Positions 6,058-36,516 of a DNA stretch of 37,432 bases are shown here, one piece after another. This DNA is from a virus (Duplodnaviria; Heunggongvirae; Uroviricota; Caudoviricetes), in IMG/VR virus record IMGVR_UViG_2724679140_000013. The stretch is one strand, 5' to 3'. The position numbers were made by a program, and so were the translations under genes. The notes under the pieces are model-generated. The model was not told the DNA's origin. It did no database searches and was given only the letters and a program-made list of their open reading frames with translations. Each line of letters opens with the position of its first letter. The stretch's first letter is position 1.

Positions 6058-6080
6058 ACAACCGCGCCAGCGGTTTTTTT
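6058..6080 (+). terminator. putative intrinsic terminator within the SPFH-to-A noncoding stretch
   Basis: short GC hairpin accgc-gcca-gcggt followed by T7 run. Confidence 0.4.
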
Positions 6081-6259
6081 GTGCGTACCGTATCGCCACG
6101 TCTTTTTCGCGTCAAAATTATGGTGGGGCGTACAGGGCCAGCATCAGCTGGGCCGGGTCCTCTGTTAGCCGGTAGTTCCAACCCTGTACGTCTCACCACC
6201 CCGAGCTTGGAACCTCTGGATGGTGAGTTTTCAAAACTGACTAACAGAGAGGCCACACC

Positions 6260-6487: not shown

Positions 6488-6559
6488 TTCCTGTTCCGGG
6501 CCTTTCCTGCACCTTGCGGCGGGAGGCCTTCGCACATCTGTAACAAGAGGATTGCCGCA

Positions 6560-6925: not shown

Positions 6926-6931
6926 ATCACT

Positions 6932-10790: not shown

Positions 10791-10794
10791 ACCA

Positions 10795-11467: not shown

Positions 11468-11785
11468 TTATGCAACCTGACAGGAATGTTCTGCCGTCGC
11501 AGTAACAACCCCACCGGAATACCCAAACTTAAAATCCCACCCCAGGATGTTTAGCATGATAAACAGTCGATCAATGGTATGATTATCTAACTTACCATTA
11601 ATGATTTCGCTTACTCTTGGTTGGGTTGTTTCCAGCAATTCAGCAGCTTCTCGCTGGGTAAGACCGCGCTCCTGAATCATTTTTCGGATAATAACCATTA
11701 ATTGGGCCCGGATGTGTTTATCACTAGCTTCATTTACAGAGCTACTTGATGACGCATAAGGGTTTTTGACTACGACGAATTCCAT
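11468..11785 (-). CDS. HTH (XRE-type) antitoxin, HigA-like
   Basis: 105 aa; HTH GLTQREAAELLETTQPRVSEIINGK; directly downstream of the toxin gene. Confidence 0.75.
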   Translation of the reverse strand: MEFVVVKNPYASSSSSVNEASDKHIRAQLMVIIRKMIQERGLTQREAAELLETTQPRVSEIINGKLDNHTIDRLFIMLNILGWDFKFGYSGGVVTATAEHSCQVA

Positions 11786-11855: not shown

Positions 11856-12257
11856 CTATCTTAAGCCATTTTTACGACGATACTCCACTAATTGTTTGTA
11901 TCTTGCGGCAGCTGTCTCATATTCTTTTTTTGACACACCATTTGTCTTTTTCTTAAATGTATGAAGTATGTAAACAGACTCCGCAAATTTCGCAACGTAA
12001 ATCATACGATAAGAATCACTACTCTTGATGGTTAATTGCATTGCGTAGCGACCAATCGTTTCCCGCATTGATTTTTTTTGAGCAGGTGGAACCCCCAAGG
12101 CATCATCACCATCCACTGGAAAATCGAAACTGTCGAAAGAATGAGGACAATCGCTCTGCAGTGCAACAAGCTCAAAATTTATCCTTTCTCGAACAGCTTC
12201 AGGATAACTATCAATTTGTTTCTGAATTTTATCATTCCAATATGTGATGTCTTTCAC
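11856..12257 (-). CDS. RelE/HigB-superfamily toxin (Gp49-like)
   Basis: 133 aa; C-terminal signature YRMIYVAKFAESVYILHTFKKKTNGVSKKEYETAAARYK typical of Gp49/HigB-like toxins; GTG start with GAGAGG SD. Confidence 0.75.
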   Translation of the reverse strand: MKDITYWNDKIQKQIDSYPEAVRERINFELVALQSDCPHSFDSFDFPVDGDDALGVPPAQKKSMRETIGRYAMQLTIKSSDSYRMIYVAKFAESVYILHTFKKKTNGVSKKEYETAAARYKQLVEYRRKNGLR

Positions 12258-12369: not shown

Positions 12370-12867
12370 TTTTTTTGAACGACTTTTTGCCCTTCCGGCC
12401 CGCGTGGCGGCTGGATCCGCCAAGGATCCGTGCGTGCACAAAAAAACGCGTTTTTTCTGCGCGCAGGTGACGGGGGAACAGCCCGCGTTTCAGGGGGTAA
12501 ATAGCATTCCCTGAACGATGTCGCAGCGACACAACAGAATGGCTGTATCGCTCACGCTGAGCGTGAAAAATACGTAAGGGGTTCTGATTTGATGGGGTGA
12601 AAGGTAAGGCCGTCAAATCGCAATGAGACGGCGAGAACATGCTGTCAGCTCGATGGGATTGCGTAAGAGTCTGGCCATCGATGATGGCGATAAGTTGGAA
12701 GACGTCGTGAAATTATCTGATTGATACGGGAGCTGGAGAGTCGGGGCATAAATTTTTTATGCCCCGGCGAAGCAGCAGACAAGCGAAGCGCGTCAGTGAT
12801 GCGGCACCTTGCCGACCACACTCCATAAGTGCAAAATACGAGCAAAGAAATCAATGGAGGCTGTTTT

Positions 12868-16204: not shown

Positions 16205-16358
16205 TGCTCCCCCTGAGTAATTACAGGAAGATTACCCGCGCGCGAAACCGTTCTCCTTAACCCCCTGTTCTGGCCGTTTTCTTACAACAAAAGCCCTTTG
16301 TATCAGCCTGTTACGCTTTGCCATCATGACTGAAGAACCAGTCAGAGGGGCAAAAACT
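16205..16358. promoter_or_regulatory. divergent late promoter region between P and O (Ogr-dependent by analogy)
   Basis: intergenic region between divergently transcribed late operons; no clear TGT-N12-ACA Ogr half-sites found by eye. Confidence 0.35.
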
Positions 16359-21032: not shown

Positions 21033-21183
21033 CCTTCCCACATGGGGAAATCTCGGTATATGGGGCGACCGCCTTCTGGATGCACTGGAAACCTGTAACG
21101 CGGATAAACGGGCCATTGAATTACTGGAACAGCGCAGGCTGCAACGACTGAACAACGAGGACAACAACCATGCTGAAAACTGA
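20893..21183 (+). CDS. o-spanin lipoprotein (Rz1/LysC-like), overlapping i-spanin in another frame
   Basis: 96 aa from ATG at 20893; lipobox LLTGC; proline-rich mature region. Confidence 0.65.
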   Translation: MNAPTLCLTLVLLTGCAGTQNAPLPAPSVRLIPQTLTIPVTPPPFPDLPTWGNLGIWGDRLLDALETCNADKRAIELLEQRRLQRLNNEDNNHAEN

Positions 21184-21637
21184 TTCCCTGCGTGAAGCCA
21201 TGACCCGTTCATGCCGATGGTGTCAGGCCAACCCGGAAAAATTCACCATTTTCGTGGAGAGCGGCAACATTGAAACGACAGGAGAAACCCCATCGTTTGT
21301 TTACCGCTATCAGATGGTGATGTTTGTCATGGATTACGCCGGGGAGCTGGATGACCTCACGCTGCCGCTGCTGGCGTGGTTATCCGAAAATCAGCCACAG
21401 TTGTTGCTCAACCCTGAGCGTAATCAGGACATCAAATTCTCCGCCGTTATCAATGACGATGACAGCGCCGACCTCCTGTTTACGCTCCCCCTGCGGGAAC
21501 GCGTTCGCATCACGCGCAACAGTCAGGGCACACCGCAGGCAGAACACCTGCCGGAGCCAAAACCCCGTCTGCCCTCTTCCGAAGGCGACTGGTCGCATGT
21601 ATTCCAGGATGTGACGTGGGGTGAAAGCGATGGATAA
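21170..21637 (+). CDS. R: tail completion protein (P2 gpR family)
   Basis: 155 aa; same length and position as P2 R. Confidence 0.8.
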   Translation: MLKTDSLREAMTRSCRWCQANPEKFTIFVESGNIETTGETPSFVYRYQMVMFVMDYAGELDDLTLPLLAWLSENQPQLLLNPERNQDIKFSAVINDDDSADLLFTLPLRERVRITRNSQGTPQAEHLPEPKPRLPSSEGDWSHVFQDVTWGESDG

Positions 21638-22265
21638 GGCATTCACCCGCGTGGATGAAACCTTTGAGGCCATCCGCAACAGCCTGAATCAGCAGGCCAT
21701 CAATAACATCGCCAGAAAGCTGGCACAGGATTTACGCCGCGCCCAGCAGGCGCGTATCCGGTCACAGAAAGCGCCGGACGGGACCGCGTGGACACCACGC
21801 AGACGCCGCGTAACCCGGATACAGGAACGCATTCGCTTTATCTGGAATAACGAAGCACGCACGCTGAAAAACTGGCATCACGACACGGGGAAATACGGGC
21901 GAACCATTACCGGGTGGGATGAGGATAAAAACAATATCCGCACGTTTTACCGGGATGACATCGACCGTTTTCTGGAAATACGCACCCGGCGCATCAACCA
22001 GGACAGCACAAAGCGCGTCCCCATGTTCGTAAAACTGCGCACCGCCCGCTACCTGAAAGCCCGTGCAGATGCTTCCGGTGTGACGGTGGGTTACAGCGGC
22101 GTGGCCGCACGTATTGCCCGCGTTCATCAGTTCGGTGAGCGCGATCAGGTTGCGCCGGGCATTTTCACCGATTACCCGGTACGTGAGCTGCTGGGTATCA
22201 GCCAGGCAGATGAGCGCCTGATTTATAACACGGTGCTGGGCCGGATTGCGGAGGCTGTACGGTGA
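21630..22265 (+). CDS. S: tail completion / virion morphogenesis protein (P2 gpS family)
   Basis: 211 aa from ATG at 21630 overlapping R stop; position-conserved. Confidence 0.8.
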   Translation: MDKAFTRVDETFEAIRNSLNQQAINNIARKLAQDLRRAQQARIRSQKAPDGTAWTPRRRRVTRIQERIRFIWNNEARTLKNWHHDTGKYGRTITGWDEDKNNIRTFYRDDIDRFLEIRTRRINQDSTKRVPMFVKLRTARYLKARADASGVTVGYSGVAARIARVHQFGERDQVAPGIFTDYPVRELLGISQADERLIYNTVLGRIAEAVR

Positions 22266-22843
22266 GCGCAGAACTCATGCGACTGCTGAGCAATATCATC
22301 CGCACCGGGATCATCTCTGAAGTTGATGAGAAGTCCTGGCGCGTGCGCGTTCGCAGCGGCGAACTGGAAACAGGATGGTTGCGCTGGAACACCACGCGCG
22401 CGGGAGCCTTCAATGTGTGGCTGCCGCCATCACCAGGCGAACAGGTGGTAATTGCCTGCATTGGCGGCAACCCGGAAACCGCCATGATAATTGGCAGCCT
22501 GTGGAGTGATGCCAGTCCGGCCCCCGGAAAAAGCCTGAAAGAAATCGTGGTCAGTGCGCCGGATGGCGCGGTGTTCCGCTACGACGCGGACGCAGGCGCA
22601 CTGAGCGCCAGCGGCATGAAAACAGCCACCCTGCAGGCATCCGTCAGCGTGACACTGGATACGCCCGTCGTGGAATGCACAGACCTTCTGAGAACGGCGA
22701 CGCTTGACGTCACAAAAGGGGGAAAGATGAGCGGCAATATCACGCACAGCGGCGGCGATTTCACCTCAAACGGCATCACAGTGCATACGCATAAGCACGG
22801 TGGTGTTAAAGGTGGCAGCGATTCGACAGGAGGCCCGCAGTGA
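22262..22843 (+). CDS. V: baseplate spike protein (P2 gpV family)
   Basis: 193 aa; C-terminal GGxMxGNIxHxGGxxxSNGxxxHTHKHxG matches gpV apex motif; GTG start overlapping S stop. Confidence 0.85.
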   Translation: MSAELMRLLSNIIRTGIISEVDEKSWRVRVRSGELETGWLRWNTTRAGAFNVWLPPSPGEQVVIACIGGNPETAMIIGSLWSDASPAPGKSLKEIVVSAPDGAVFRYDADAGALSASGMKTATLQASVSVTLDTPVVECTDLLRTATLDVTKGGKMSGNITHSGGDFTSNGITVHTHKHGGVKGGSDSTGGPQ

Positions 22844-23190
22844 CAACCCGCTACACAGGAATGAACCCGGACGGGACGGGAAACCTGAACGATATGGACC
22901 ACCTGAAACAGTCAGTCAGGGACATCCTGACCACCCCGCTGGCAAGCCGGGTTATGCGACGGGAATATGGCAGCCTTGTGCCTGATTTGATTGACGAACC
23001 CATGAATAACACCACGCGTCTGCAATGCATGAGTGCTGCCGTGATTGCACTGACACGATGGGAACCCCGCATTGCCCTGGATGCCATCGATGTTGTCTGG
23101 AAAGCAGGAGGCCGCGCTGGGGTGACGCTGTCGGGCACTGTCATGCAGACCATGCAGAATGTTGAATTAACCATCACGCTGAGAGAGTAA
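22840..23190 (+). CDS. W: baseplate wedge protein (P2 gpW / gp25-like)
   Basis: 116 aa; MTTRYTGMN...RVMRREYGSL parallels P2 W; AGGAGG SD before GTG start. Confidence 0.85.
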   Translation: MTTRYTGMNPDGTGNLNDMDHLKQSVRDILTTPLASRVMRREYGSLVPDLIDEPMNNTTRLQCMSAAVIALTRWEPRIALDAIDVVWKAGGRAGVTLSGTVMQTMQNVELTITLRE

Positions 23191-23193
23191 ATC

Positions 23194-24090
23194 ATGCCTG
23201 CCGTTGACCTTTCCCAGTTACCGGAACCCGCCATCATAGCGGAGCCTGACTTTGAGGCAATTCTGGCTGACACAAAGGCCATGATGATTGCGTCCTATCC
23301 TGCCGAACAGCGTGAAGCCGTCTCCGCCGCGCTGGAGCTGGAATCGGAACCCCTGAACGTTATCGCTCAAACCATGTCTTTTCGTGAAATGCTGTTACGC
23401 CAGCGGGTTAACGAGGGGGCACGCGCCTGCATGTTAAGCCACAGCGCCGGAACAGACCTGGACAACCTCGCGGGCAATATGAACACAAAGCGCCTGGTTA
23501 TCACTCCGGCAACGGATACCACCGACGCGGTGATGGAGAGCGACACCTCGCTGAGACTGCGGGCGCAGCGGGCGTACGACGGCCTGAGTGTTGCTGGCCC
23601 GTCAGGTGCATACGAGTATTTTGCCCGCAGCGCCAGCGGTCTGGTGCGTGATGCGCGGGCCATCAGTCCGTCTCCGGCCTGTGTGACGGTTTCCATCCTG
23701 TCCACTGAAGGCGACGGCACAGCAACGGAGGCGTTGCTTAATACCGTTCGCGCCGTTCTGAATGCAGAGGATACCCGCCCGGTGGCCGACCGCCTGACCG
23801 TACAGAGCGCCAGAATCGTGACATGGCGGCTGAATGCAAAACTGTACTTTTACCCCGGTCCGGAATCCGAACCTATTCTGGCGGCGGCTGAATCGTCGTT
23901 CAGGAAGTGGCTGGCTGAGCAGGGGCTTATCGGTCAGGACGTGGCGTTGTCCGCCATTGCTGCCGCACTGCATGTGCACGGTGTGCAACGCGTGGAGATA
24001 ATCGAACCCACACAGAATATGGCCATCAGCGACATACAGGCGGCGCGCTGTGAGTCATTCACCATCAGCGAAGGTGGGCGTAATGAGTAA
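23194..24090 (+). CDS. J: baseplate assembly protein (P2 gpJ family)
   Basis: 298 aa; length and position as P2 J. Confidence 0.9.
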   Translation: MPAVDLSQLPEPAIIAEPDFEAILADTKAMMIASYPAEQREAVSAALELESEPLNVIAQTMSFREMLLRQRVNEGARACMLSHSAGTDLDNLAGNMNTKRLVITPATDTTDAVMESDTSLRLRAQRAYDGLSVAGPSGAYEYFARSASGLVRDARAISPSPACVTVSILSTEGDGTATEALLNTVRAVLNAEDTRPVADRLTVQSARIVTWRLNAKLYFYPGPESEPILAAAESSFRKWLAEQGLIGQDVALSAIAAALHVHGVQRVEIIEPTQNMAISDIQAARCESFTISEGGRNE

Positions 24091-24691
24091 TTCACTGTTA
24101 CCGCCATCAGCCAGCAGTTTCATGCGTTGCGCCGAAGCTGTCGGAGCGCGCATTACAGACATCCCGGTAGACCTCAACACGCTGTGGTCACCGGACACCT
24201 GCCCGGTGCATCTGCTGCCTTATCTCGCCTGGGCATTTTCCGTTGACCGCTGGGATCGCAACTGGCCGGAAGAGACAAAGCGACAGGTGATTCGTGATGC
24301 ATGGCTGATACACCGACACAAAGGGACCATCAGCGCACTGCGAAGAGCCGTGGAGCCTCTCGGCTACCTGATTGAAGTAAAGGAGTGGTGGCAACTCAAC
24401 GAGGAGCCGGGAACATTTCGCATTGTTGTCGGAGTACTTGATCAGGGCATCACCGATGAAATGTATCAGGAACTTGAGCGCCTTATTGCGGATGCAAAAC
24501 CAGTAAGTCGCCATCTGACGGGGCTGGCGATCAGCCTGAGTGTGAACGGAAAGATTTTCGTTGGTACGGGATGCTATCACGGCGATGCCCTGACGGTTTA
24601 TCCCTACACCCCGGAGTCCATTATTGTCGAAGGGGATTATTTCCCTGCCCCGGCCATTCATTTAATTGATAATCTGAGAGTAAACCCATGA
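24083..24691 (+). CDS. I: baseplate/tail protein (P2 gpI family)
   Basis: 202 aa from ATG at 24083 overlapping J stop. Confidence 0.85.
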   Translation: MSNSLLPPSASSFMRCAEAVGARITDIPVDLNTLWSPDTCPVHLLPYLAWAFSVDRWDRNWPEETKRQVIRDAWLIHRHKGTISALRRAVEPLGYLIEVKEWWQLNEEPGTFRIVVGVLDQGITDEMYQELERLIADAKPVSRHLTGLAISLSVNGKIFVGTGCYHGDALTVYPYTPESIIVEGDYFPAPAIHLIDNLRVNP

Positions 24692-26013
24692 CATCAAAAT
24701 ACTATGCCATACTGACCAGCCAGGGCGCAGCAAGGCTGGCAAACGCGACCATGCTCGGCAGCAAGCTGAATCTGACGCAAATGGCCGTGGGTGATGCAAA
24801 CGGCATATTACCAACGCCAGATCCGACACAAACCAGACTGATTAACCAGAAACGCATTGCTCCGCTGAATATGCTGGATATCGACCCCTCTAATCCGGGC
24901 CAGATTATTGCGGAACAAATCATTCCTGAAAATGAAGGAGGTTTCTGGATCCGTGAGATTGGTCTTTACGATGATGAAGGGATCCTTATTGCAGTGGCGA
25001 ACTGCCCGGAAACCTACAAACCACGATTGCAGGAAGGGAGTGGTCGTACACAGACCATCCGAATGCTCCTTATTGTCAGCAATACAGAGTCTGTCACACT
25101 GAAAATTGACCCGTCAGTAGTCCTGGCAACCCGCAAATATGTGGACGACAGGATGTCTGGTGCATCCTTGCAACTGGACAAATTAATAGAGAAACACATC
25201 AATGCAGAGGATCCGCATACCCAATATGCCCACAAAGAATCCCCGGCGTTTAGCGGCACCCCGACTGCACCAACTGCGGATAAAGCGGATAACAGCAATA
25301 AGCTGGCCACGACAAAATTTGTAAAAGGGGCAATCGCTGATCTGCAGTCAAAATTAGATAATAACCAGCCCGTTGACTGCTATACAAAAGCCGAATCAGA
25401 TACCAGGTATCCGGATTCAGGAAGTGTTGCATACCTGACGAAAAGTACAATTCAGCGTTTTCAGGGAAGTATTGAAGTCAGGGATATTTTCAGTATCTAC
25501 ACATTAAATGATGTAAACGGTCTCAGGCTCGAACCGGGACTAAAAAATAACATTGGACTGAAACGCAGAGGAAAATGGACTTATTACAGCTTCCCGGATA
25601 AGGATGGGGAGCTGGCATTAAAATCTGATTTAACTTCGCTTCTGGACGGTCTGGACATATATCCTGTGGGAGCACCACTTCCCTGGCCATTAGCCACACC
25701 GCCATCGGGTTACTTAATCTGTAACGGACAGCGATTTAACCCGTCCACCTACCCCGGGCTGGCTTCTGCCTATCCAGGTGGTGTCCTGCCGGATTTGCGC
25801 GGTGAATTTATTCGTGGCTGGGATAATGGTCGTGGTGTGGATACAGGAAGACGCATCCTCAGTCAGCAATTCGGCAATACCCCAGTTATGGATTATGAAT
25901 ATCCGGTAGGCAGTGGTTTTTCGGTAACGATTCGCACTGTAGGAAATGATGAAGGTGCAAATGAAACGCGTCCGCGAAATATCGCTTTTTTATATATCGT
26001 GAGGGCTAAATAA
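24688..26013 (+). CDS. H: tail fibre protein (P2 gpH family)
   Basis: 441 aa; conserved P2 H N-terminus (MTSKYYAILTSQGAARLANA...); divergent C-terminal receptor-binding region. Confidence 0.85.
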   Translation: MTSKYYAILTSQGAARLANATMLGSKLNLTQMAVGDANGILPTPDPTQTRLINQKRIAPLNMLDIDPSNPGQIIAEQIIPENEGGFWIREIGLYDDEGILIAVANCPETYKPRLQEGSGRTQTIRMLLIVSNTESVTLKIDPSVVLATRKYVDDRMSGASLQLDKLIEKHINAEDPHTQYAHKESPAFSGTPTAPTADKADNSNKLATTKFVKGAIADLQSKLDNNQPVDCYTKAESDTRYPDSGSVAYLTKSTIQRFQGSIEVRDIFSIYTLNDVNGLRLEPGLKNNIGLKRRGKWTYYSFPDKDGELALKSDLTSLLDGLDIYPVGAPLPWPLATPPSGYLICNGQRFNPSTYPGLASAYPGGVLPDLRGEFIRGWDNGRGVDTGRRILSQQFGNTPVMDYEYPVGSGFSVTIRTVGNDEGANETRPRNIAFLYIVRAK

Positions 26014-26633
26014 TGCAAAAATATAACGTCAATATTCAGGAAGGAAAAATTGGTGAGAACGGTCTGGCCAGCGTGGCCGGATGGGTTAAGTGCTACCTTG
26101 CTAATCCTGTAACACGCGAATACATGGGGTCCACCATGGAATATGTCATGTTCGATGTGTCCCTGTCAGAAGGTGCATATCTGGATGAACCTCAGTTACC
26201 AGTAAAAGCCAGTCAGGCGGTTCGACGCACGGAAGATGGAACAGCCTGGGAAATTGTCGACGATTATCGTGGGATGGAAGCCTTTAATACACAAACCAGA
26301 GAGTCCGTAACCATTAATTTTATTGGTCCATTGCCCGAAATATTAACAATGCACAAACCCACAAGCGAATTTGACAGATGGGATGGCCATCGCTGGGTGG
26401 AGGACAAAGAAGCAGCCAGAAAAGCCAGGATTGATGCTGTCAGAAAACACAAAGCAGCGTTATCAGAAGAAGCGGAAACACGCATCGCTCAGCTTGAGCG
26501 AAAAGTTCGTCTGGAACTTGCATCAGATGAAGAAAAAGAACTGCTGAAAGCATGGGAAATCTACACAATAAAACTCGATGATATCAATCCTGAAATAACA
26601 ACGGATATTAAACTGCCGGAGAAGCCAGAATAA
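26013..26633 (+). CDS. G: tail fibre assembly chaperone (P2 gpG / Tfa family)
   Basis: 206 aa; immediately downstream of H with overlapping stop/start. Confidence 0.8.
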   Translation: MQKYNVNIQEGKIGENGLASVAGWVKCYLANPVTREYMGSTMEYVMFDVSLSEGAYLDEPQLPVKASQAVRRTEDGTAWEIVDDYRGMEAFNTQTRESVTINFIGPLPEILTMHKPTSEFDRWDGHRWVEDKEAARKARIDAVRKHKAALSEEAETRIAQLERKVRLELASDEEKELLKAWEIYTIKLDDINPEITTDIKLPEKPE

Positions 26634-26752
26634 TTAATGTTTCCGGCAATCTATCGGATAACCGGATAAAACCAGCCCCGGCAATTCCGACAGTTTCTTT
26701 TTATAAAAACTTACCGCTGTGACCAGACTGGTTATCAGCGGTTCACTTCATA

Positions 26753-27247
26753 TCAGAACAGTGCTTTAACTGAACTTGTCGTATTATTCAGGGATGCGGT
26801 CACTTTTCCCTTTAGCTCTGACACCATATCGCTGAATGAGGAGGACTGAAGGCGTTCCCGCAGATCTTCGTCGCATCGCTCCAGCGTCAGGGAAAATTCT
26901 ATTTTCTTCGCTTTCCCGTAGCGATCTAACTCAGAACGGGTCGTATTCGTTTCGGTCAGAACATACATGCCATAAATATGTCCGACACCATCAATCAGAG
27001 GCCAGGGTCGCCCTGTATACGCCTGTGTGGTCAGCAGCGACAGTGACACTTCGCCACCTGTAATTTCAGGATAAAGCACGCCGGAAAGAACGATGCGATC
27101 ATCACCTGCACCGATATACTGCCAGCTTGCAGAACGGTTAACGCGTTCATTTTTCACATGCCGCCAGCTTTTGTTTTGCTGCAACTGCTGATGCGGCAAT
27201 GTGCGCAACTCAAAAACAAACATACCGTAAATCATCATCATGACCAT
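26753..27247 (-). CDS. U: tail protein U (P2 gpU family)
   Basis: 164 aa; motifs WQYIGAGDDRIVLSGVLYPEITGG and KIEFSLTL match gpU. Confidence 0.85.
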   Translation of the reverse strand: MVMMMIYGMFVFELRTLPHQQLQQNKSWRHVKNERVNRSASWQYIGAGDDRIVLSGVLYPEITGGEVSLSLLTTQAYTGRPWPLIDGVGHIYGMYVLTETNTTRSELDRYGKAKKIEFSLTLERCDEDLRERLQSSSFSDMVSELKGKVTASLNNTTSSVKALF

Positions 27248-27253
27248 GAATCC

Positions 27254-30064
27254 TTAATCTTTATCGTAAAAACGGCCACGTCCGGCACGGTCACGTCGTT
27301 CCATTTCTGTCCTGACCATTTCACCGACCAGTTTCGCCAGTTCGCGGGGATTCTGCGTAACAACGTTATGCAGATGAACATGAATTTCACCACCAAATCC
27401 GGAGGCAACAGGCTCCCGGTTACGGGGAGGAGCAGGAACAGATGCCACTGGCGATCGTATGGCCTCCGCCACCGGGCGGGAGCTGGCAGCAACAACAGGG
27501 ACCAGCGCCGGAGGCAGCGGAGCCGGGACCACGGGTGTGATATTGATTGCGGGGGCAGGCTTACTGACCTGCGCAATCTTCCGCTCCTGCCACTCCCCAC
27601 GAACGGCAAGTGCGCGTGGCAGGTTCTTAAAGACAATATCGCCGGGGCCAATGCGTTTTTTCGTCTCATCAACCAGCTTACCTGTGTTATCAGCAATTTT
27701 GCTGAGTCTGCGTTGCGTACCGGTATTGCTGTCTGTGAGCGGTTTGTTGTCTTTGGGTTTATCGCCTCCGGTGCCATTTTCCGCTGGCTTCGGCGGATTG
27801 ATTTTCGCCAGATCCCCCTGAAGCAAGGCAACCTTATCCTGAAGAATGGCCGCACGCTGTGCGTCTTCGATTTTCTTTCTCGCCCTTTCCGCTTCATCCG
27901 GAAGCACACCGAGCTTTTCAAGTATCCACGCCAGCGTATCCAGCAGCATTTTTGCAGGCGTCAGAACAAGCTGTAGCGCACCACCAAGAACGTTACCAAA
28001 TACCTCGCCAGCACTGGTGCACTTATCCAGTGTTTCCTTGCTGGACTCCATCGGTGACAGCAGCGATTTAAACCAGTTAAACACCTGGCTGATCCCGCTT
28101 CCGATTATGTCAAAAACAGGGCCAAACCGTTCAAAGGTTTCACGCAGCGGAGCCAGCTTTTCCATAATTCCGCTGAACACCCCGGCAAAAAATGCCTTAA
28201 TCGGGTCCCAGTATTTCCAGATGAGAACCGCCGCAGCCACAAGTGCAGCAGCAACCAGACCAACCGGACTGAACAGCGTCCCGAGAGCACCGCCCAGCAA
28301 AGAGACGGAACCCGTCACCATTCCCCATAGTGCAGGCAACACCCTGACAACATTCATGGAACTGGTCAGAAGAGAAAAACCAAGACGCAACGTGGCCAGC
28401 TTCCCGTAAAGCACCCCAACAACCAGCGATAACGAGCCTACGGTTGCTGTCAATGCCAGCAGCGCACCGCCTGCAATCAGCAACTGGCGCGTCAGTACCG
28501 GATGGGCCTGTGCCAGCGCCGTCACCTTTGTGACCACACGCGTGAGCCACTGTGTGACAGAACGCAGCGGCCCATCAATCAGATCACTGATGCGAATACG
28601 CAGCCCTTCCCATGCGCTGCCGAGTGATTTCAGGTCGCCGTCAAGGTTGTCGGCCATAACCTTTGCTGTACGCTCTGCCTCACCGCGCGCAGCTTCAAGC
28701 TCTTTTCTCAGTTTGGGTAAGGAACCGTTACCCGCCGCATCAACGAGCGCCATAAACGATGTGAAAGCCTCTTCTCCGGCAATGTCCTTAAAGAACGATA
28801 CCCGGTCAACTTCCCCGTATTTGCGGGTGGCTTTATAAAGGTCGGCCAGCACATTCTCCATCGGGCGCATTTTGCCGTTCGCGTCAGAGACGGCCACACC
28901 CAGTTCTTTCAAAGCATCAGCGGTTGCCTTTGGCTGTGTTACCAGACGAGCCAGGCTGGCACGCATTGCCGTCCCGGCATCACTCCCCCTGATCCCCATA
29001 TTCGCCAGCACACCCGCCATTGCTGCGGCCTGCTCCAGCGATATTCCCAGCTTGCCCGCCACCGGACCTGCATATTTCATGGTTTCACCCAGTGCGCGAA
29101 GGTCAGTGTTGGTTCGGGTAAACGCTGCGGTGAGTGTGTCACCGACCCGGTCCATCTGGTCAGCAGAAAGGCCGAACTGCGTCAGGATATTTGAGCCAAT
29201 ATCCGCCGTCTCGCCGAGGTCCATACCGCCAGCCGTTGCCATGTTCAGCACGCCGGGAAGCGCAGCCTGAATGGCTTCTGGTGTGAAGCCAGCCATTGCC
29301 AGAAAGCTCTGTCCACTGGCGGCATCGCCTGCGGTGAACTGTGTTTCAGAGCCAAGTTTTAACGCCTGCTCACGCAGCGCCTTAAACTGCGGGCTGTTTT
29401 TGTCGATTCGCGTCAGTGCCTGAACGCGGGACATCTCTTTCCCGAACCCGATGGCAGGCTGTAAAAAACGCCCGGCAGCATAGCCGCCAGCCGCTGCCGC
29501 GCCAATTGCCAGCGCACCACCCGTTTTCAGTTTTCCCGCTGTTTCCTGCGCGCGCGAATACCGCTCACGCGCCCGTGTTACACGCGCAAGCGCCTGCCGT
29601 TCGCGTTCAAGCTGGTTGTTGTATTGTTCGGTGCGTCTGATGGCCTGCTGGATGGTGTTATCGCTACCTGTCAGGGAAATGCCGTGGCGTTTCAGCTCTC
29701 CGCCAAGTTCCCGCATTTTCTGAATTTCCCGTGTGCGCGATTCGTTCAGGCGTTCAAGCCGGGTGCTTAACTGCTGCATCAGCTTTTGTTGTTTTTCGCT
29801 GAGCACTGTCCCCGAGCGTTGTAACTGTTGAAGGGCGTTAAGCTGGCGTCGTGCTTTCACGATGCCCGCATCCGCTTTACTGACAGCGTCACGGGCGCGC
29901 TCAAATGAACGCGCCTGACGCTCAAGATTTTTGATCGCCCCCTGCGTTCGCTGGATGGAGTCACCAAACTGTCCCATCAGACGGCGGGCGCTTTCGACAG
30001 GCCGGGTCAGCCTGTCAACGGCGCTGAAAGCGACCCGGATATCAAGAGTCTTCATTGTCTGCAT
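27254..30064 (-). CDS. T: tail tape measure protein (P2 gpT family)
   Basis: about 936 aa; coiled-coil N-terminus, Gly/Ala-rich TM-like middle, typical tape-measure composition; start uncertain (candidates ATG 30064, ATG 30055, GTG 30091). Confidence 0.85.
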   Translation of the reverse strand: MQTMKTLDIRVAFSAVDRLTRPVESARRLMGQFGDSIQRTQGAIKNLERQARSFERARDAVSKADAGIVKARRQLNALQQLQRSGTVLSEKQQKLMQQLSTRLERLNESRTREIQKMRELGGELKRHGISLTGSDNTIQQAIRRTEQYNNQLERERQALARVTRARERYSRAQETAGKLKTGGALAIGAAAAGGYAAGRFLQPAIGFGKEMSRVQALTRIDKNSPQFKALREQALKLGSETQFTAGDAASGQSFLAMAGFTPEAIQAALPGVLNMATAGGMDLGETADIGSNILTQFGLSADQMDRVGDTLTAAFTRTNTDLRALGETMKYAGPVAGKLGISLEQAAAMAGVLANMGIRGSDAGTAMRASLARLVTQPKATADALKELGVAVSDANGKMRPMENVLADLYKATRKYGEVDRVSFFKDIAGEEAFTSFMALVDAAGNGSLPKLRKELEAARGEAERTAKVMADNLDGDLKSLGSAWEGLRIRISDLIDGPLRSVTQWLTRVVTKVTALAQAHPVLTRQLLIAGGALLALTATVGSLSLVVGVLYGKLATLRLGFSLLTSSMNVVRVLPALWGMVTGSVSLLGGALGTLFSPVGLVAAALVAAAVLIWKYWDPIKAFFAGVFSGIMEKLAPLRETFERFGPVFDIIGSGISQVFNWFKSLLSPMESSKETLDKCTSAGEVFGNVLGGALQLVLTPAKMLLDTLAWILEKLGVLPDEAERARKKIEDAQRAAILQDKVALLQGDLAKINPPKPAENGTGGDKPKDNKPLTDSNTGTQRRLSKIADNTGKLVDETKKRIGPGDIVFKNLPRALAVRGEWQERKIAQVSKPAPAINITPVVPAPLPPALVPVVAASSRPVAEAIRSPVASVPAPPRNREPVASGFGGEIHVHLHNVVTQNPRELAKLVGEMVRTEMERRDRAGRGRFYDKD

Positions 30065-30571
30065 TCCCGCTGCGAAGTGCCGCCCGCTCACGCCAGCTAA
30101 CCACTTCGCCGGGCGTCATCATGAAGATTTCGGCGGGCGACCAGTTAAAAATAACGGCAATATCTGCCACAAAGTCTTCTATGTGCTCAAAGCACAAAAC
30201 TGTGATCAGGCTTCCGTCGCCTGTTCGTTCTTCCCGCCAGAGTCCGCACCGCTCAAAAAATTTACGGCAACCACGCATAACTGAATAAAGTCACGGGATG
30301 CCATTTTTTTGATCGTCACTTCATCCAGTCGCGGTGATGTCACGCGTGACAGCAGCGTAAACATGGATTCCGCTTTCAGATTCAGCACATCAGACAGCGA
30401 CAAATCTCGCAGAGATCCAGCCTGCTCAATAGCCCCGGTGATCTCCACAAACGTGATTTTTTCGCCGCCACGCTCAATGGGTTGGGTAAGTTTTACGCCA
30501 CGCTCACTGGTTTCTTTCACAGTATCAGCAACTACCGTGTTTTCGGTATCGATGTTTTTCGTCTCTTTCAT
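30042..30571 (-). CDS. E+E' fusion product by programmed -1 frameshift
   Basis: second ORF in -1 frame (open from 30290 to stop at 30042) overlaps E; slippery heptamer T_TTT_TTG in E frame at 30260-30254; E' C-terminus overlaps T start as in P2. Confidence 0.6.
30206..30571 (-). CDS. E: tail assembly chaperone E (P2 gpE family)
   Basis: 121 aa; AAGGAG SD; contains slippery site near 3' end. Confidence 0.75.
   Translation of the reverse strand: MKETKNIDTENTVVADTVKETSERGVKLTQPIERGGEKITFVEITGAIEQAGSLRDLSLSDVLNLKAESMFTLLSRVTSPRLDEVTIKKMASRDFIQLCVVAVNFLSGADSGGKNEQATEA
30254..30260 (-). other. -1 ribosomal frameshift slippery heptamer TTTTTTG
   Basis: minus-strand T_TTT_TTG in E reading frame; shifted frame continues KFFERCGLW... 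to 30042. Confidence 0.6.
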
Positions 30572-30625
30572 CAGGAAACTCCTTTCAGTCAGAGGCGACG
30601 CACTGCGCCGCCTGCATATTACTTA

Positions 30626-31138
30626 TCAGCCAAGCCCAAGTGCGGAACGGATGCGATCGGGCACAATGTCCTTACCGTCCTTCCGGTAAATGAAGTTCAG
30701 CAGGTCAATCTCCCACAACGGACGATCGTTAACGCTCAGCTTGTAGTAGGTGTTTTTAATGGCGTAAGTGTGCGACGTGGCTTCGCCCTGCTTGGCTTCC
30801 CCCATATCAATTTCCGTCACACGTCCGCGCATTTCGACTTCATACAGGTCGCTTTCTGCATCGGTGTAGTATTCGCCCGCAAAACGCAGCAGCGTGCCGT
30901 CAATCGTGCCGCCATACTTAAGGAACAGCTCACGAACTGCGCCCCCCATGACAAAGCTCGCATCAAGCGCGGAGTCGTCCAGACCGAGATCAATACTTAC
31001 CGCGCCCATCATGCCACCACCCCGGTAGCTGTCGGTTTTGCGCGTCAGTTTAGGCAGGGTGACAGACGTCACCTTACCCACTTCGTTTTCACCATCCACA
31101 AACAGCGTAAAAAAGCGAAGATGTTTTGGTACAGCCAT
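30626..31138 (-). CDS. FII: tail tube protein (P2 gpFII family)
   Basis: 170 aa; ATG overlaps FI stop (ATGA). Confidence 0.9.
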   Translation of the reverse strand: MAVPKHLRFFTLFVDGENEVGKVTSVTLPKLTRKTDSYRGGGMMGAVSIDLGLDDSALDASFVMGGAVRELFLKYGGTIDGTLLRFAGEYYTDAESDLYEVEMRGRVTEIDMGEAKQGEATSHTYAIKNTYYKLSVNDRPLWEIDLLNFIYRKDGKDIVPDRIRSALGLG

Positions 31139-32322
31139 CAGGCACCTCCCAGAACCGCAAATGCGGGTCCAAAGAATTCATCAGTAAACGACTGGTAAAG
31201 TTCCATGTCTTCCAGTGGAGGAGCTGGCGTATATTTGTAGCGAATACGCACCCGCCCCTGACGTAAATCCGTGGTGCCGTTATCCACCACGTCATACCAG
31301 CACGACGCCCCAATCAGTTTCCCGGCAGTAACCAGTGAATCCAGTTTTGCCCTGACGGCACTGATAACATCCTTCACATTCACGGGTGTTAATGGGCTGT
31401 CAATGGTTTCAAACTGCGCTTCCGCAATCGTGTCAGCCAGGACCTGTGCGGTACGGGTATACACCTCAAAGATGTAGGCTTTTGTTTCCGGTGTGCGGTT
31501 GCCCCAGAAGCGGAACCCGTTGCGACGAATAATGGTCGTGATTTCCTGGTTGTTGAGGCTGTTGGCATCACTGCCTTCGGCCTGCAACGACCAGAACACA
31601 TGTCTGGACATTCCCAGCACATTTTTAACCGGAACGTTGGACAGCGATTTGTGCCAGCCCTGCTCATGGTCAATGTACGCACGAAGGCCGCACGCATAGG
31701 CAGGCGCGGGGAACACTTCGTTTTTGCCACTTTTCGGGTTCCAGGCGATGAAGTCCGGCCATAAGAGCATCACCTCACGTTCGTTGAATTTCTGGCGGTA
31801 GGTAATTGCCTCAGCCATCGTGTTACAGCCGTGACATGAGGCATACACAAACGCGCGCAGTTTACCCGCAATCACGCACAGGGATTTTGTTACCGCCTCC
31901 GTGTCCAGCTCCGGCGCGGCCAGAATACGCGGACGGTATCCGATGCTTTCCTCCTGCTCTGCAACAAGCAGCGCATACATCCCCGTATAGCTGCCGTCAG
32001 ATTCAGAACCACCGATAACCAGTTGATCCTGCGTCTTACCGCCCTCTTCTTTGTGTTCAGCCACGCGAACGACGATCACCTTTGTGCTCACCTGGTCTGC
32101 GATAGCCTTAAGCGCACGATAAAGCGTCCCCGTTGTTCCGCATTTTCCCAGCACGTCATTGACGCGGGTCAGCAGTGTGGGCTTGTTCAGCGGGAACAGC
32201 TTCGCGTCCGCATCATCCGCCGTTGCCACGATACCGATAACACTGGAATCAACATCGTTAATCGCTGTTACCAGGTCGGTATTTTCCGTAACACGGGCAC
32301 CATGAAAACGAGTTTCACTCAT
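31138..32322 (-). CDS. FI: contractile tail sheath protein (P2 gpFI family)
   Basis: 394 aa; multiple conserved blocks (FPLNKP, RILAAPELDT, LRAF.Y, WPDF.AW, QGWHK.LSNV, FRFWGNRT, YTPAPPLE) match P2 FI; AAGGGG SD. Confidence 0.9.
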   Translation of the reverse strand: MSETRFHGARVTENTDLVTAINDVDSSVIGIVATADDADAKLFPLNKPTLLTRVNDVLGKCGTTGTLYRALKAIADQVSTKVIVVRVAEHKEEGGKTQDQLVIGGSESDGSYTGMYALLVAEQEESIGYRPRILAAPELDTEAVTKSLCVIAGKLRAFVYASCHGCNTMAEAITYRQKFNEREVMLLWPDFIAWNPKSGKNEVFPAPAYACGLRAYIDHEQGWHKSLSNVPVKNVLGMSRHVFWSLQAEGSDANSLNNQEITTIIRRNGFRFWGNRTPETKAYIFEVYTRTAQVLADTIAEAQFETIDSPLTPVNVKDVISAVRAKLDSLVTAGKLIGASCWYDVVDNGTTDLRQGRVRIRYKYTPAPPLEDMELYQSFTDEFFGPAFAVLGGA

Positions 32323-32479
32323 AGCTTCAGCCCCTTGTATCCGTTAAATGATTAGGCAACAATCATCACCCACCACGCGCGTAATCTCACCCCTGCGCCA
32401 TTCTCCCGCCACGGCGACAACAAAAAGCAGTAACCCCCTCCGCACGCACATGCGACCATGCCGCACAGGGAGGGAACAG
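32323..32479. promoter_or_regulatory. divergent intergenic region between FI (minus) and D (plus); expected late promoters
   Basis: 157-bp gap between divergently oriented late genes; no clear Ogr-type dyad recognised. Confidence 0.3.
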
Positions 32480-33589
32480 ATGACCGACACCACCATGCAA
32501 TTGCTCAGTCAGGGCACAGACCCTGTAAAAATGCCGGATTTTGATATTCTCGCGGAGGGTAAAACGCTGTCAGGCGTGGCAGAGCGCCTGATGAGCCTGT
32601 CACTGACCGACAACCGTGGATTTGAGGCGGACCAGCTCACCATCACGCTGGATGATGCGGATGGTCAGTTGCAGCTACCGCCACGGGGCGCGCGCCTGAC
32701 GGTTCTCATTGGCTGGAAAGGAGAACCGCTGACAGAAAAAGGCACTTACATTGTTGATGAAATCGCTCACGAAGGACCGCCGGACAGGCTGACTGTTTCA
32801 GCCAGAAGCGCAGATTTTCGGGATGAATTTAACGTTAAACGTGAGGTGTCCTGGCATGATGTGACCGTTGAGCGTGTGGTATCCGCCATCGCTCATCGGT
32901 ACGGTCTGAAACCACAAATCAGCGAAATACTGATGGATATTGAAATCGACCACGCCGACCAGACCGAAGAAAGCGACATGTCCTTCCTTACGCGCATGGC
33001 GGAAATGCTGGGCGCAATCACCACGGTAAAAAGCGGTAATCTGTTATTCATCATGCCTGGCGGTGGCGTGAACGCACAGGGCCAGCCGTTGCCCTCATTC
33101 GCCATCACACGCAGCAGTGGCGATCGCCATCAGTTCCGCATTGCTGACCGCGAAGCGTATACGGGGGTACGCGCTTACTGGCTTGATCTTAATTACGGGA
33201 AAAAGAAAAAAGTCAGCGTGAAACGCCGCAAACCGCCAAAACCCAAAAAGGAGAAAAGCAGCAGCCGTGAAGGTGATTATATGGAAGGCGCGGAAGGCAA
33301 TGTGTTTGTGTTACGCAAGACTTATCAGAACGAGCAGGCAGCAAGACGCGCAGCGGCGGCGAAGTGGCAGCAGCTACAACGCGGAGCCGCATCATTCTCC
33401 ATCACGCTGGCACGTGGACGAGCAGAACTCTACCCCGAAATGCATGGCACGGTAACAGGATTTAAAAGCGAGATTGATAATCAGGACTGGATTATTGCAA
33501 AAGCCGAGCACACCATTGATAACAGTGGTTTTACCACACAGCTTGAGCTTGAAGCAAAAATCCCGGAATGGATAGCAGAAACAGAGTGA
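32480..33589 (+). CDS. D: tail protein D (P2 gpD family, late control D)
   Basis: 369 aa from ATG at 32480 (GGGAGGG SD); typical gpD features including basic KKKKVSVKRRKPPKPKK patch. Confidence 0.85.
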   Translation: MTDTTMQLLSQGTDPVKMPDFDILAEGKTLSGVAERLMSLSLTDNRGFEADQLTITLDDADGQLQLPPRGARLTVLIGWKGEPLTEKGTYIVDEIAHEGPPDRLTVSARSADFRDEFNVKREVSWHDVTVERVVSAIAHRYGLKPQISEILMDIEIDHADQTEESDMSFLTRMAEMLGAITTVKSGNLLFIMPGGGVNAQGQPLPSFAITRSSGDRHQFRIADREAYTGVRAYWLDLNYGKKKKVSVKRRKPPKPKKEKSSSREGDYMEGAEGNVFVLRKTYQNEQAARRAAAAKWQQLQRGAASFSITLARGRAELYPEMHGTVTGFKSEIDNQDWIIAKAEHTIDNSGFTTQLELEAKIPEWIAETE

Positions 33590-33715
33590 ACAACCTCGAC
33601 GTTTTACTTAATATACAATAGCCTTCTGGACACGGTAAGGCAAGAACAAGGGTAAAAGATCCTTTACTGTCAGAGTTACAGGTTATACCTGTAAGCAAAA
33701 ACAAAGGCATATATT

Positions 33716-34474
33716 ATGTTCAGTTTATTTTCGTTAACTGCCGGAGCAAATGTGCGCTGGCATGATTTACCTGGTAAAGGTATTCCTGTTGTTTTTATTC
33801 ATGGGCTTGGCTGTTCCTCTTCTTATGAATATCCACGGGTTGTTGCAGATCCTGCATTTGGTGGACAACGAGCGATATTGATAGATCTCCCTGGATATGG
33901 ATTCAGTGATAAGCCTAAAGGATTCGATTACAGCATATCCCATCAAGCTAAAGTTGTTATTGAAGTAGTAGAAACCTTAAATCTCTCACAGTTCCATATT
34001 TATGGTCACAGTATGGGGGGAAGTATTGCGATTGAAGTGGCCAGACAACTACATGAGAGAACAAGAAAGCTTGTGGTTTCTGAGCCTAATTTTCACTCTG
34101 GTGGAGGTACCTATAGCCGTAAGATAATAGAGAAACCAGAAGCAGAGTTTATTTCGCATATATATAATGAATTACTGGAGTGTGAAACATCCCCATGGAA
34201 AGGTGAACTCCAGAATGCAGCCCCATGGGCAATATGGCGAGGAGCCAAAAGTCTGGTTGATGGAACCACTCCATCATGGAGAGATATATTCCTTAATCTG
34301 CCCTGTTCACGTACACTAATTTTTGGCGAACAATCATTGCCAGACAATGATTTCCAGCAAATAAAAGAATCTGGAATATCTGTTGCAATAGTGCCAAACG
34401 CTGGACACTCCATGTCATGGGAAAATCCATCAGCACTGGCCTCAATTTTACATACAGAATTTTATAGAAAGTAA
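33716..34474 (+). CDS. alpha/beta-fold hydrolase (esterase/lipase-like), AT-rich cargo gene
   Basis: 252 aa; nucleophile elbow GHSMGG, N-terminal HGLG oxyanion-region motif; markedly lower GC than flanking phage genes. Confidence 0.8.
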   Translation: MFSLFSLTAGANVRWHDLPGKGIPVVFIHGLGCSSSYEYPRVVADPAFGGQRAILIDLPGYGFSDKPKGFDYSISHQAKVVIEVVETLNLSQFHIYGHSMGGSIAIEVARQLHERTRKLVVSEPNFHSGGGTYSRKIIEKPEAEFISHIYNELLECETSPWKGELQNAAPWAIWRGAKSLVDGTTPSWRDIFLNLPCSRTLIFGEQSLPDNDFQQIKESGISVAIVPNAGHSMSWENPSALASILHTEFYRK

Positions 34475-34827: not shown

Positions 34828-35088
34828 ATGTTTCGTTGTCCGCTTTGTGGCGCATCTGCCCGTATCCGCACCAGTCGTCCGGAAAATGATTCAAACACCG
34901 TGCGGCAAAAGTATTACCAGTGTAACAACCTGGAATGCGGCGTATGCTTCTCAACACTGGAAGCTTTCCATAAATTCACATCAAAACACGCCTCCGGCGT
35001 TCACTCTTCAGAAGGTATCCCGTGGCATGAGCTGCCAGCTTCACACAGGGGAAACAATCAGATGAGTTTGCCTTTACCTCAGAATTAA
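34828..35088 (+). CDS. ogr: Ogr/Delta-type zinc-finger late transcription activator
   Basis: 86 aa; MFRCPLCGASARIRTSR ... YYQCNNLECGVCF (CxxC...CxxC) closely resembles P2 Ogr; AAGGGAGG SD. Confidence 0.85.
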   Translation: MFRCPLCGASARIRTSRPENDSNTVRQKYYQCNNLECGVCFSTLEAFHKFTSKHASGVHSSEGIPWHELPASHRGNNQMSLPLPQN

Positions 35089-36360: not shown

Positions 36361-36390
36361 ACAAAAAAACCACCCGAAGGTGGTTTCACG
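36361..36390 (-). terminator. intrinsic terminator of glyW-cysT-leuZ operon
   Basis: on minus strand hairpin aaaccacc-ttcg-ggtggttt followed by T7; 40 nt downstream of leuZ 3' end. Confidence 0.6.
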
Positions 36391-36429: not shown

Positions 36430-36516
36430 TGGTACCCGGAGCGGGACTTGAACCCGCACAGCGCGAACGCCGAGGGATTTTAAATCCCTTGTGTCTACCG
36501 ATTCCACCATCCGGGC
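36430..36516 (-). tRNA. leuZ: tRNA-Leu (anticodon UAA)
   Basis: 87 nt; reverse complement reads GCCCGGATGGTGGAATCGGTAGACACAAGGGATTTAAAATCCC...GGGTACCA with anticodon loop TTTAAAA. Confidence 0.95.

Follow-up and report, generated by a model that had tools for sequence, protein, structure and literature searches.

The inverted sheath-to-U block of a P2-like Escherichia coli prophage follows the order of its P88-type lineage and may share one activator site with gene D

Pfam assignments in the stretch of viral DNA analysed here (37,432 nucleotides, the window) are consistent with a full P2-type set of head, lysis and tail late genes, and tblastn finds homologues of all 22 P2 late proteins in it at 26-62% identity. 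The minus strand carries FI, FII, E, T and U; the remaining late genes are oriented as in P2. PGAP gene names were taken from the prophage of E. coli M8, which is 100% identical to the window. The genes of the region are the following.

22262..26633, plus strand: baseplate and tail-fibre genes V-W-J-I-H-G (ORFs, Pfam for H and G, tblastn with P2 homologues)
24688-26013, plus strand: tail fibre H (Pfam)
26013-26633, plus strand: tail-fibre assembly protein G (Pfam)
26753-27247, minus strand: tail protein U (Pfam PF06995, E = 2.5e-38; 46% identity to P2 gpU)
27254-30091, minus strand: tape measure protein T (Pfam PF10145; 33% identity to P2 gpT)
30206-30571, minus strand: tail assembly chaperone E (32% identity to P2 gpE; PGAP 'GpE family' ORF)
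30042-30571, minus strand: E+E' (three-frame translation, slippery site)
30626-31138, minus strand: tail tube protein FII (Pfam PF04985, E = 7.5e-47; 42% identity to P2)
31138-32322, minus strand: tail sheath protein FI (Pfam sheath domains; 45% identity to P2 FI)
32480-33589, plus strand: baseplate hub / late control protein D (Pfam PF05954, GPD; 48% identity to P2 gpD)
34828-35088, plus strand: Ogr/Delta-type zinc-finger late activator (Pfam PF04606, E = 5e-14)

The plus-strand run starts with V at ~22262, continues with W (22840), J (23194), I (~24083), H (24688) and G (26013), and ends at the stop codon of G, converging on U. On the minus strand, PGAP places the start of T at 30055. The Pfam search gives no match for E (30206-30571), and a P2-type programmed -1 frameshift feature is present, with the slippery heptamer TTTTTTG at ~30260-30254 and E' as an open -1 frame continuing to 30042, upstream of the tape measure gene. 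The D reading frame is open from 32348 and offers an ATG at 32480, preceded by a GGAGG Shine-Dalgarno motif 7 nt upstream and in agreement with the start annotated in P88, which argues for a D start at 32480 rather than at 32348. The analysis likewise argues for placing the start of O at 16359 rather than at 16326. The Ogr homologue shows the cysteine motif CX2C...CX4C in its translation and runs in the same direction as D, with an alpha/beta-hydrolase gene between the two.

The original prediction described U, T, E/E', FII and FI as a minus-strand block between plus-strand V-to-G and D, separated from D by a gap of 157 bp, and contrasted this with the co-directional order FI-FII-E-T-U-D of P2. 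The ORFs agree with this description (26753-32322), and the gap length holds given the D start at ATG 32480. Strands and tblastn homologues further indicate that the FI-U block is truly inverted in place relative to P2 and that D, on the plus strand, is cut off from the minus-strand remainder of the F operon. The contrast with P2 is real because P2, SopEPhi and 36 other loci keep FI to D co-directional. The canonical organisation of the P2 F operon, with FI to D co-directional downstream of G, is therefore not that of the window, which has the layout of the P88-type clade of Xuanwuvirus, Gemsvirus and allied genera: FI-U inverted, D-ogr divergent from FI and the fibre operon convergent on U.

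This layout is widespread. Over 25800-33700, both junctions included, the window is matched at 100% identity by three complete E. coli genomes. The U-to-D block is colinear in 1,101 of 5,426 complete E. coli genomes, and of the 1,375 complete E. coli genomes that match the junction of FI, gap and D, 1,105 have it colinear with a coverage of ≥80%. When 40 rows were sampled evenly across 1,377 matching E. coli records, 39 cross the FI-D junction, and the weakest row is a match of only 83 bp inside D. Among phage records, the window stretch 24000-34000 finds 92-94% identity over 73-80% of its length, and FI plus D are colinear in 42 records, down to ~68% nucleotide identity. The gene order is annotated in characterised phages: the same strands are given for P88, 500465-2, 3LV2017 and phiT5282H, which represent four ICTV genera. 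Hence, this orientation is also that of the closest characterised relatives, the very observation that the original prediction had set against its own reading, and the implied unusual or recent event in this element gives way to an order typical of the P88-type clade. In the literature on P88, Citrobacter rodentium prophages, Burkholderia P2-like phages, Peduoviridae/Xuanwuvirus and xenorhabdicin, we found no explicit description of the inverted arrangement. In other Enterobacterales, a one-genome-per-species scan, of which the best 80 of at least 576 loci were used, shows the window order at 44 of 80 loci, spanning ~20 genera, and the P2 order at 36.

The distribution bears directly on the origin of the block. 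An assembler that mis-oriented the 5.7-kb segment, the artefact proposed in the original prediction, would have to have produced identical junctions three times over, in complete genomes assembled independently, and colinear ones in more than 1,100 further complete E. coli genomes. Genomes of phage isolates and 44 other species (among the best 80 of at least 576 loci) show the same order as well, the junctions hold no repeats able to mislead an assembler, and the intergenic signals suit the observed orientation; we give this possibility practically no weight. A recent, prophage-specific inversion, or a programmed switch of the Gin/Cin/Hin/Pin type flipping the block between two states, could draw on the serine invertase of the relatives, whose gene directly adjoins the left breakpoint, following U in the inverted clade and separating G from FI in relatives with the canonical order. 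Yet the window contains no invertase (tblastn with the P88 invertase, best E = 3), and crossover-like AAACCNNGGTTT sites occur in P88 only around the H'/G' cassette. No AAACCNNGGTTT-type crossover site was found at the window's block boundaries (~26.6 and 32.4 kb), and an inverted-repeat search at both junctions yields only short pairs at chance level, none of them spanning the junctions; the best pair (I5) matches at 16 of 18 bases and has one arm within FI. Moreover, only the junction with divergent FI and D is seen among E. coli genomes matching the junction, and orientation goes with protein phylogeny, following it down to ~50% identity. Recent inversion or switching is therefore very improbable.

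Module replacement, by which a sheath-tube-tape-measure cassette from another contractile-tail element was inserted in the opposite direction, is in keeping with the frequent mosaicism of P2-like phages and with the late-operon rearrangement reported for Smp131 (PMC3931495). A foreign cassette is at odds with the divergence of the block from P2 (FI 45%, FII 42%, U 46%), which equals that of its flanks (V 46%, D 48%, Q 47%); over all its genes the block is 32-46% identical to P2, and P and N in the flanks reach 44% and 42%. The pF dyad also retains its P2 spacing to FI, and the FI and D trees recover the same clade with similar stems. We consider this route improbable, if less so than a switch.

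In neighbour-joining trees of FI and D, built without bootstrap from the best 80 of at least 576 loci and rooted on betaproteobacterial loci, the inverted-type loci are monophyletic for both proteins, the window falls inside the clade, and the stem of the clade is 0.103 long in the FI tree and 0.104 in the D tree. One clade in both trees points to a single old inversion; because the trees lack bootstrap and cover this subset of loci, a single origin is not rigorously established. In the ancestor of the clade, the segment comprising the pF promoter, FI, FII, E/E', T and U would have flipped in place, one breakpoint separating the tail-fibre/invertase region from the pF activator site and the other separating U from D. 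The inversion would then have become fixed, such that in all sampled members G converges on U and FI diverges from D-ogr. Thus, the inverted block represents the normal, ancient order of a very common prophage group, so that neither misassembly nor a recent change accounts for it. Taken as a whole, the account of the window as a P88-type P2-like (Peduoviridae) E. coli prophage with a lineage-normal order, produced by an ancestral in-place inversion and combined with the promoter model below, is in our view highly probable.

The convergent gap between G and U is 119 bp long and holds two candidate terminators.

26634..26752, no strand: G-U gap, two face-to-face terminator-like elements (folds, sequence)
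26654-26690, plus strand: terminator-like hairpin, followed by TTTCTTTTTAT (fold)
26742-26713, minus strand: terminator-like hairpin, followed by the T-rich tail AAGTTTTTAT at 26712-26697 (fold)

A generic terminator scan finds nothing in the G-U or FI-D gap; direct folding of the G-U gap revealed the hairpins, with z-scores of -2.7 and -3.0. The gap has no match in P88 or 500465-2, homology restarting at 26752, and it contains neither an invertase nor an alternative fibre cassette, unlike P88.

The original prediction reasoned further that the divergent FI-D gap must carry promoter signals and proposed to look there for Ogr-dependent motifs. The first point is supported, and the gap contains a conserved Ogr-type dyad, T[GC]T-N12-A[GC]A, which in the window has five of the six specified bases of TGT-N12-ACA.

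32323..32479, no strand: divergent FI-D control region, putative bidirectional late promoter (alignment across relatives, anchored profiles)
32402..32419, no strand: Ogr-type dyad, TCTCCCGCCACGGCGACA on the plus strand (conserved across relatives)
32362..32367, minus strand: -10-like hexamer GATGAT of the putative pF (offset conservation, P2 geometry)
32454..32459, plus strand: -10-like hexamer GACCAT of the putative D promoter (offset conservation)
16269..16286, no strand: second dyad of the same type, TCT-N12-ACAACAAAAGC, in the divergent P-O gap

P2 has four late operons and a late-promoter consensus of TGT-N12-ACA (PMC3931495), and the feature scored here is such a dyad ~55 nt upstream of the transcription start. 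An exact search of the window for TGT-N12-ACA returns four sites, which is below chance expectation, none of them in late intergenic gaps, and a generic sigma-70 scan detects no promoter in the FI-D or G-U gap. The dyad came to light by relaxing one base and comparing relatives. Both window dyads (16269 and 32402) read TCT-N12-ACA and match the consensus equally well; read towards FI, the FI-D dyad is TGT-N12-AGA, and its centre is 88.5 nt away from the ATG of FI and 69.5 nt away from that of D. In 44 of the 45 inverted-type loci, a T[GC]T-N12-A[GC]A motif precedes the alignment-anchored FI start, its centre 74.5-88.5 nt away (median 82.5); ~0.03 such motifs per locus are expected by chance, and 18 of these 44 carry the perfect TGT-N12-ACA. 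The median equals the spacing in P2, where the centre of the pF activator site lies 82.5 nt from the FI ATG.

The surroundings of the dyad are conserved on both sides. At offset 52 from the dyad, NANNNT is present in 44/44 unique sequences on the FI side and in 38/42 on the D side (next-best offsets reach at most 10 sequences), and start codons of D concentrate at 77-80 nt from the dyad start; as the loci are phylogenetically related, part of this conservation of position reflects common descent and is not independent. A TAATCT hexamer stands at the same offset on the P side of the P-O dyad, and in the P-O gap the model would place transcription starts near 16333 (plus strand) and ~16222 (minus strand). 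The predicted pF transcription start falls at ~32353-32355, a geometry in agreement with the mapped pF, pO and pP starts of P2, where mapped starts lie 64-67 nt from the dyad start. For D, a start at ~32466-32468 is predicted, with a leader of 13-15 nt that includes the GGAGG. A single activator site is annotated for pO and pP in the P2 record, and Smp131 has a shared pP'/pO' site (PMC3931495).

From this sequence geometry we infer that one activator site would drive FI-U leftward and D rightward. The dyad-symmetric Ogr-binding site would have moved along with pF and would now lie between FI and D, where it would serve a pair of late promoters in mirror image, their -10-like hexamers both lying 52-57 nt away from the dyad start. 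Transcription from pF would proceed leftward through FI-U and end at the hairpin plus T-run just past U, and a new D promoter would transcribe D rightward, possibly reading on towards ogr. That the D gene severed by the inversion co-opted the Ogr site of pF as a bidirectional late promoter, by way of a newly evolved D promoter with its short leader of 13-16 nt, is the version we somewhat favour. Alternatively, the arrangement may be real while D is expressed from something other than an Ogr-dependent divergent promoter, for instance a constitutive promoter, an early one or a different activator site. The D-side hexamers are poor matches to TATAAT (e.g., GACCAT), the predicted leader is very short, and the FI-D gap yields no sigma-70 promoter in the consensus scan. 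P2 late promoters are, however, similarly weak sigma-70 matches (GAAACT, TAGCCT), and the tight conservation of the D-side hexamer offset (38/42) and of the D start (77-80) relative to the dyad speaks against this alternative. Short leaders have precedent, since the transcription start of P2 pV is annotated at the V start codon. An independent D promoter is thus a serious but rather doubtful alternative to the shared Ogr site.

The textbook late-gene map of P2 is hence not valid for every P2-like phage. The inverted sheath-to-U block marks a large and very common clade of Enterobacterales prophages, found in roughly one in five complete E. coli genomes, and because the clade is common, the inverted orientation is no ground for flagging misassembly or novelty in prophage annotation. 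The conserved, symmetric FI-D region suggests how an activator-dependent operon may be split with both halves keeping one regulator, and the promoter model yields precise predictions of transcription starts. If it is correct, D, and possibly ogr by read-through, would stay under late control, the low-copy D would be dosed apart from the high-copy sheath and tube proteins, and the locus would provide a natural case of promoter rewiring following an operon break.

Compared with known systems, the window is closest to P88 (Xuanwuvirus), 500465-2 (Gemsvirus) and Citrobacter phiSM, which have its order and strands (V-to-G, U-T-E'-E-FII-FI on the opposite strand, then D), 92-96% nucleotide identity from U to D and a near-identical FI-D gap. 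P88 and phiSM are inducible, infectious and viable phages (PMC5285337, PMC6456863). Between G and U, these three relatives carry an invertible alternative tail-fibre cassette and a serine DNA invertase, whereas the window has only the short gap; it also differs from them in the C-terminus of H, in G and in the hydrolase gene between D and ogr. Klebsiella 3LV2017 (Reginaelenavirus) and Enterobacter phiT5282H (Novemvirus) show the same inverted order without an invertase between the fibre genes and U. Both keep the dyad, which is a perfect TGT-N12-ACA in 3LV2017, although their nucleotide identity to the window is only ~68-72% and their tail fibres and cargo genes differ.

The P2 F operon (pF: FI-FII-E-E'-T-U-D) shares with the window the same gene set at 32-48% identity, the T6G frameshift site of E/E', the spacing of activator dyad and -10 element relative to FI, and a gene for an Ogr-type activator located downstream of D. 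The seven P2 genes all run in one direction after G, whereas in the window FI-U is inverted and D separated. The closest model for the putative FI-D promoter is P2 pP/pO, where one dyad lies between divergent late units with each of the two transcription starts at 64 nt from the dyad start, a layout that the window resembles in both its P-O and FI-D gaps. The shared-site layout has been experimentally mapped in P2, only at P/O, and its counterpart at FI/D in the window is suggested by conservation. With the Gin/Cin/Hin/Pin segments the window block shares a DNA inversion beside tail-fibre genes, and an invertase of this kind is encoded next to the breakpoint in relatives. Unlike those segments, the window block consists of 5.7 kb of essential tail genes without recombination sites at its ends or an invertase in the window, and its orientation is fixed in all genomes examined.

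The window contains a complete P2-like prophage, whose limits and late genes are as follows.

Prophage limits and late genes in the window
1-1002, minus strand: integrase, one prophage limit
24688-26013, plus strand: H (Pfam)
26013-26633, plus strand: G (Pfam)
26753-27247, minus strand: U (Pfam)
27254-30091, minus strand: tape measure protein T (Pfam)
30206-30571, minus strand: E (matches P2 gpE; no Pfam match)
30626-31138, minus strand: FII (Pfam)
31138-32322, minus strand: FI (Pfam)
32348 (frame opens), likely start 32480, end 33589, plus strand: D (Pfam)
34828-35088, plus strand: Ogr (Pfam)
36369-36382: P88-type att core, other prophage limit, beside tRNA-Leu/Cys/Gly and pgsA

The att core (ACCACCCGAAGGTG), probably attR, has one mismatch to the 14-bp attP core published for P88, and tRNA-Leu(taa) at 36430-36516 is about 48 bp away. 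Just within this prophage end is a Hok/Gef gene. E has a P2-type TTTTTTG slippery site, and the -1 frame is open for E'. Each of the 22 P2 late proteins has a tblastn match in the window, with the strand flipped for FI, FII, E, T and U only. While the F operon FI-FII-E-E'-T-U-D lies on one strand in the P2 record, FI to U are opposite to D in the window. Thus, the strands, coordinates and 157-bp FI-D gap of the original prediction are correct.

A 7.9-kb query spanning both junctions is matched at 100% identity in three complete, independently sequenced mouse E. coli genomes (M8, RSHH22, SK6988), and the U-to-D block is colinear at ~95% identity in 1,101 of 5,426 complete E. coli genomes. Hence, an assembly artefact, the second option of the original prediction, is rejected. 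With the FI-D gap at its centre, a 1.16-kb probe finds matches in 1,375 genomes, with the junction intact (at least 80% coverage) in 1,105, and no alternative orientation was seen among these E. coli matches. Rows sampled evenly over all records matching the probe cross the junction in 39 of 40 cases, the weakest being 83 bp matched within D only; the sampled O157:H7 rows span the gap and stop within D (query positions 1-925 matched). The first option, a genuine in-place inversion, is borne out. The block's identity to P2 (tblastn: FI 45%, FII 42%, U 46%) equals that of its neighbours (Q 47%, P 44%, V 46%, D 48%), which points to inversion in place and rejects a foreign cassette. An invertible switch is rejected as well because a repeat search found no inverted repeats at the junctions, the block's ends have no invertase crossover-like sites and the window encodes no invertase. 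An 18-nt inverted repeat (16/18 complementary; arms 26727-26744 and 32006-32023), with one arm in the terminator hairpin past U and the other within FI ~300 bp from the junction, was judged to be chance.

Where present, the invertase keeps with the fibre operon: canonical relatives have the order G-invertase-FI, and in the inverted clade it lies directly past U, converging on U. These positions place the left breakpoint of the inversion between the invertase and the Ogr-type dyad (putative activator site) of the late promoter pF; the right one falls between U and D, two genes that adjoin in P2. P88 and 500465-2 carry an invertible alternative tail-fibre cassette and a serine invertase between G and U, both of which are missing from the window (26013-26752 compared with 3617-8654 of the P88 locus). 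Their crossover-like sites surround the H'/G' cassette only (P88 locus, ~4880-4907 and 7951-7978). The H C-terminus and G of the window represent a different cassette from that of P88 and 500465-2, and P88-like sequence begins again exactly at the stop codon of U (26752).

The best phage matches include P88 (Xuanwuvirus), 500465-2 (Gemsvirus), PhiR44_2 and Citrobacter phiSM, and the deposited annotations of P88, 500465-2 and others give the window's strands. Divergent FI and D are also annotated in Klebsiella phage 3LV2017 (Reginaelenavirus) and Enterobacter phage phiT5282H (Novemvirus), at ~68-72% nucleotide identity. P88 can be induced and is lytic, and phiSM shows spontaneous activity (PMC5285337, PMC6456863); virions thus form with this gene order. 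In contrast, SopEPhi (Felsduovirus) has the canonical order. In Burkholderia phage KS5, D, U and T share one strand (PMC3091744). One genome per bacterial species was scanned with an FI alignment, and the best 80 of at least 576 loci were sorted by tblastn with FI, U, D, J and Ogr: 44 have the window order and 36 the P2 order. The former include Salmonella, Citrobacter, Edwardsiella, Enterobacter, Kosakonia, Klebsiella, Raoultella, Serratia, Pantoea, Erwinia, Mixta, Pectobacterium, Symbiopectobacterium, Providencia, Morganella and Xenorhabdus. One contig labelled Vagococcus sp., a Firmicute (NZ_JBQPOM010000071.1), has a prophage FI protein 96% identical to the window's, probably reflecting contamination or mislabelling of the assembly. 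For these best 80 of at least 576 loci, FI and D were each placed in a neighbour-joining tree, without bootstrap support and with betaproteobacterial loci of canonical order as the root; the inverted type forms a single clade in both, and one ancient inversion is the simplest reading. The order is therefore not the unusual event that the original prediction implied; the closest characterised relatives of the prophage share the orientation, an outcome that the original prediction itself named as refuting, as do 44 of the 80 best loci. Annotated public phage genomes already show this arrangement, and an identical prophage exists in complete genomes; literature searches found no explicit discussion of it.

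Several accessory genes were observed. A low-GC (~0.40) alpha/beta-hydrolase gene (33716-34474) is inserted between D and ogr, which abut in most relatives; 500465-2 has a different gene there, so the interval looks like a cargo (moron) slot. The early region contains an SPFH/Band 7 domain protein (5062-5892) and a plasmid-style partition module in this integrated prophage (9831-11109; ParM/StbA actin-like segregation protein and Plasmid_stab_B protein). A perfect TGT-N12-ACA dyad (12519-12536; minus strand TGTTGTGTCGCTGCGACA, like the TGTTGTG half-site of P2) lies inside ~560 bp left intergenic by PGAP in the identical M8 prophage, flanked by a minus-strand Gp49/HigB-like (11856-12257) and HTH_37 (11468-11785) pair and by a plus-strand unknown ORF (~175-187 aa, 12829/12868-13392). 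This dyad might mark a cargo promoter under Ogr control.

Further putative late signals were found. The P-O gap has a second copy of the FI-D dyad type (16269-16286, TCT-N12-ACAACAAAAGC) with TAATCT on the P side at the same offset as the FI-D hexamers. In the convergent G-U gap, two hairpins face each other, both with a T-run behind them, and are suited to terminating the V-G and FI-U transcripts. S runs directly into V (21170-22843), so that the window has neither intergenic gap nor dyad upstream of V, the position of orf30 and the pV promoter in P2. In this lineage, O to G could form one late transcription unit, or pV may lie within coding sequence.

In all lineages, the FI-D gap measures ~150 nt and includes an invariant ACAACAAAAA, on which the gaps of inverted-type loci were anchored. 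An Ogr-type dyad and -10-like hexamers were found in the gap, with these positions in the window.

Putative control elements in the FI-D gap
32367-32362: FI-side -10-like hexamer GATGAT
32402-32419: dyad
32454-32459: D-side -10-like hexamer GACCAT

T[GC]T-N12-A[GC]A is kept in 44 of 45 inverted-type loci, window included, and 18 have the exact P2 consensus TGT-N12-ACA (PMC3931495). Measured from the FI start, the dyad centre is 74.5-88.5 nt upstream (median 82.5), and the annotated pF activator site of P2 is centred 82.5 nt upstream of FI. A -10-like NANNNT occurs 52-57 nt from the dyad start on the FI side in 44/44 unique sequences and, in mirror image, on the D side in 38/42; the next commonest offsets reach at most 10 sequences. 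For P2 pF, pO and pP, the distance from the dyad start to the mapped transcription start is 64-67 nt.

The D start codon clusters 77-80 nt from the dyad start. Start annotation is inconsistent at 32348-32479 (D) and 16326-16358 (O). D has an upstream ATG in 500465-2 (413 aa), 366 aa in P88 and, in M8, a shortened 267-aa 'VgrG/Pvc8' protein plus a pseudogene fragment. A start at 32480 is favoured by its Shine-Dalgarno sequence, GGAGG at 32470-32474, and by the conserved promoter layout. The O frame opens at 16326, a codon overlapped by the -10-like element; ATG 16359, the PGAP choice, has a Shine-Dalgarno sequence and fits better.

pF would have travelled with the inverted block, and its symmetric activator site would now also serve a D-side promoter. 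We infer that the split operon, FI-U and D, is probably expressed from one activator site through divergent promoters. This conserved, apparently bidirectional architecture is the sole mildly new element. It has a precedent in the P2 record, where a single activator site serves the divergent pP and pO promoters, and Smp131 is likewise described with one shared site for divergent promoters (PMC3931495).
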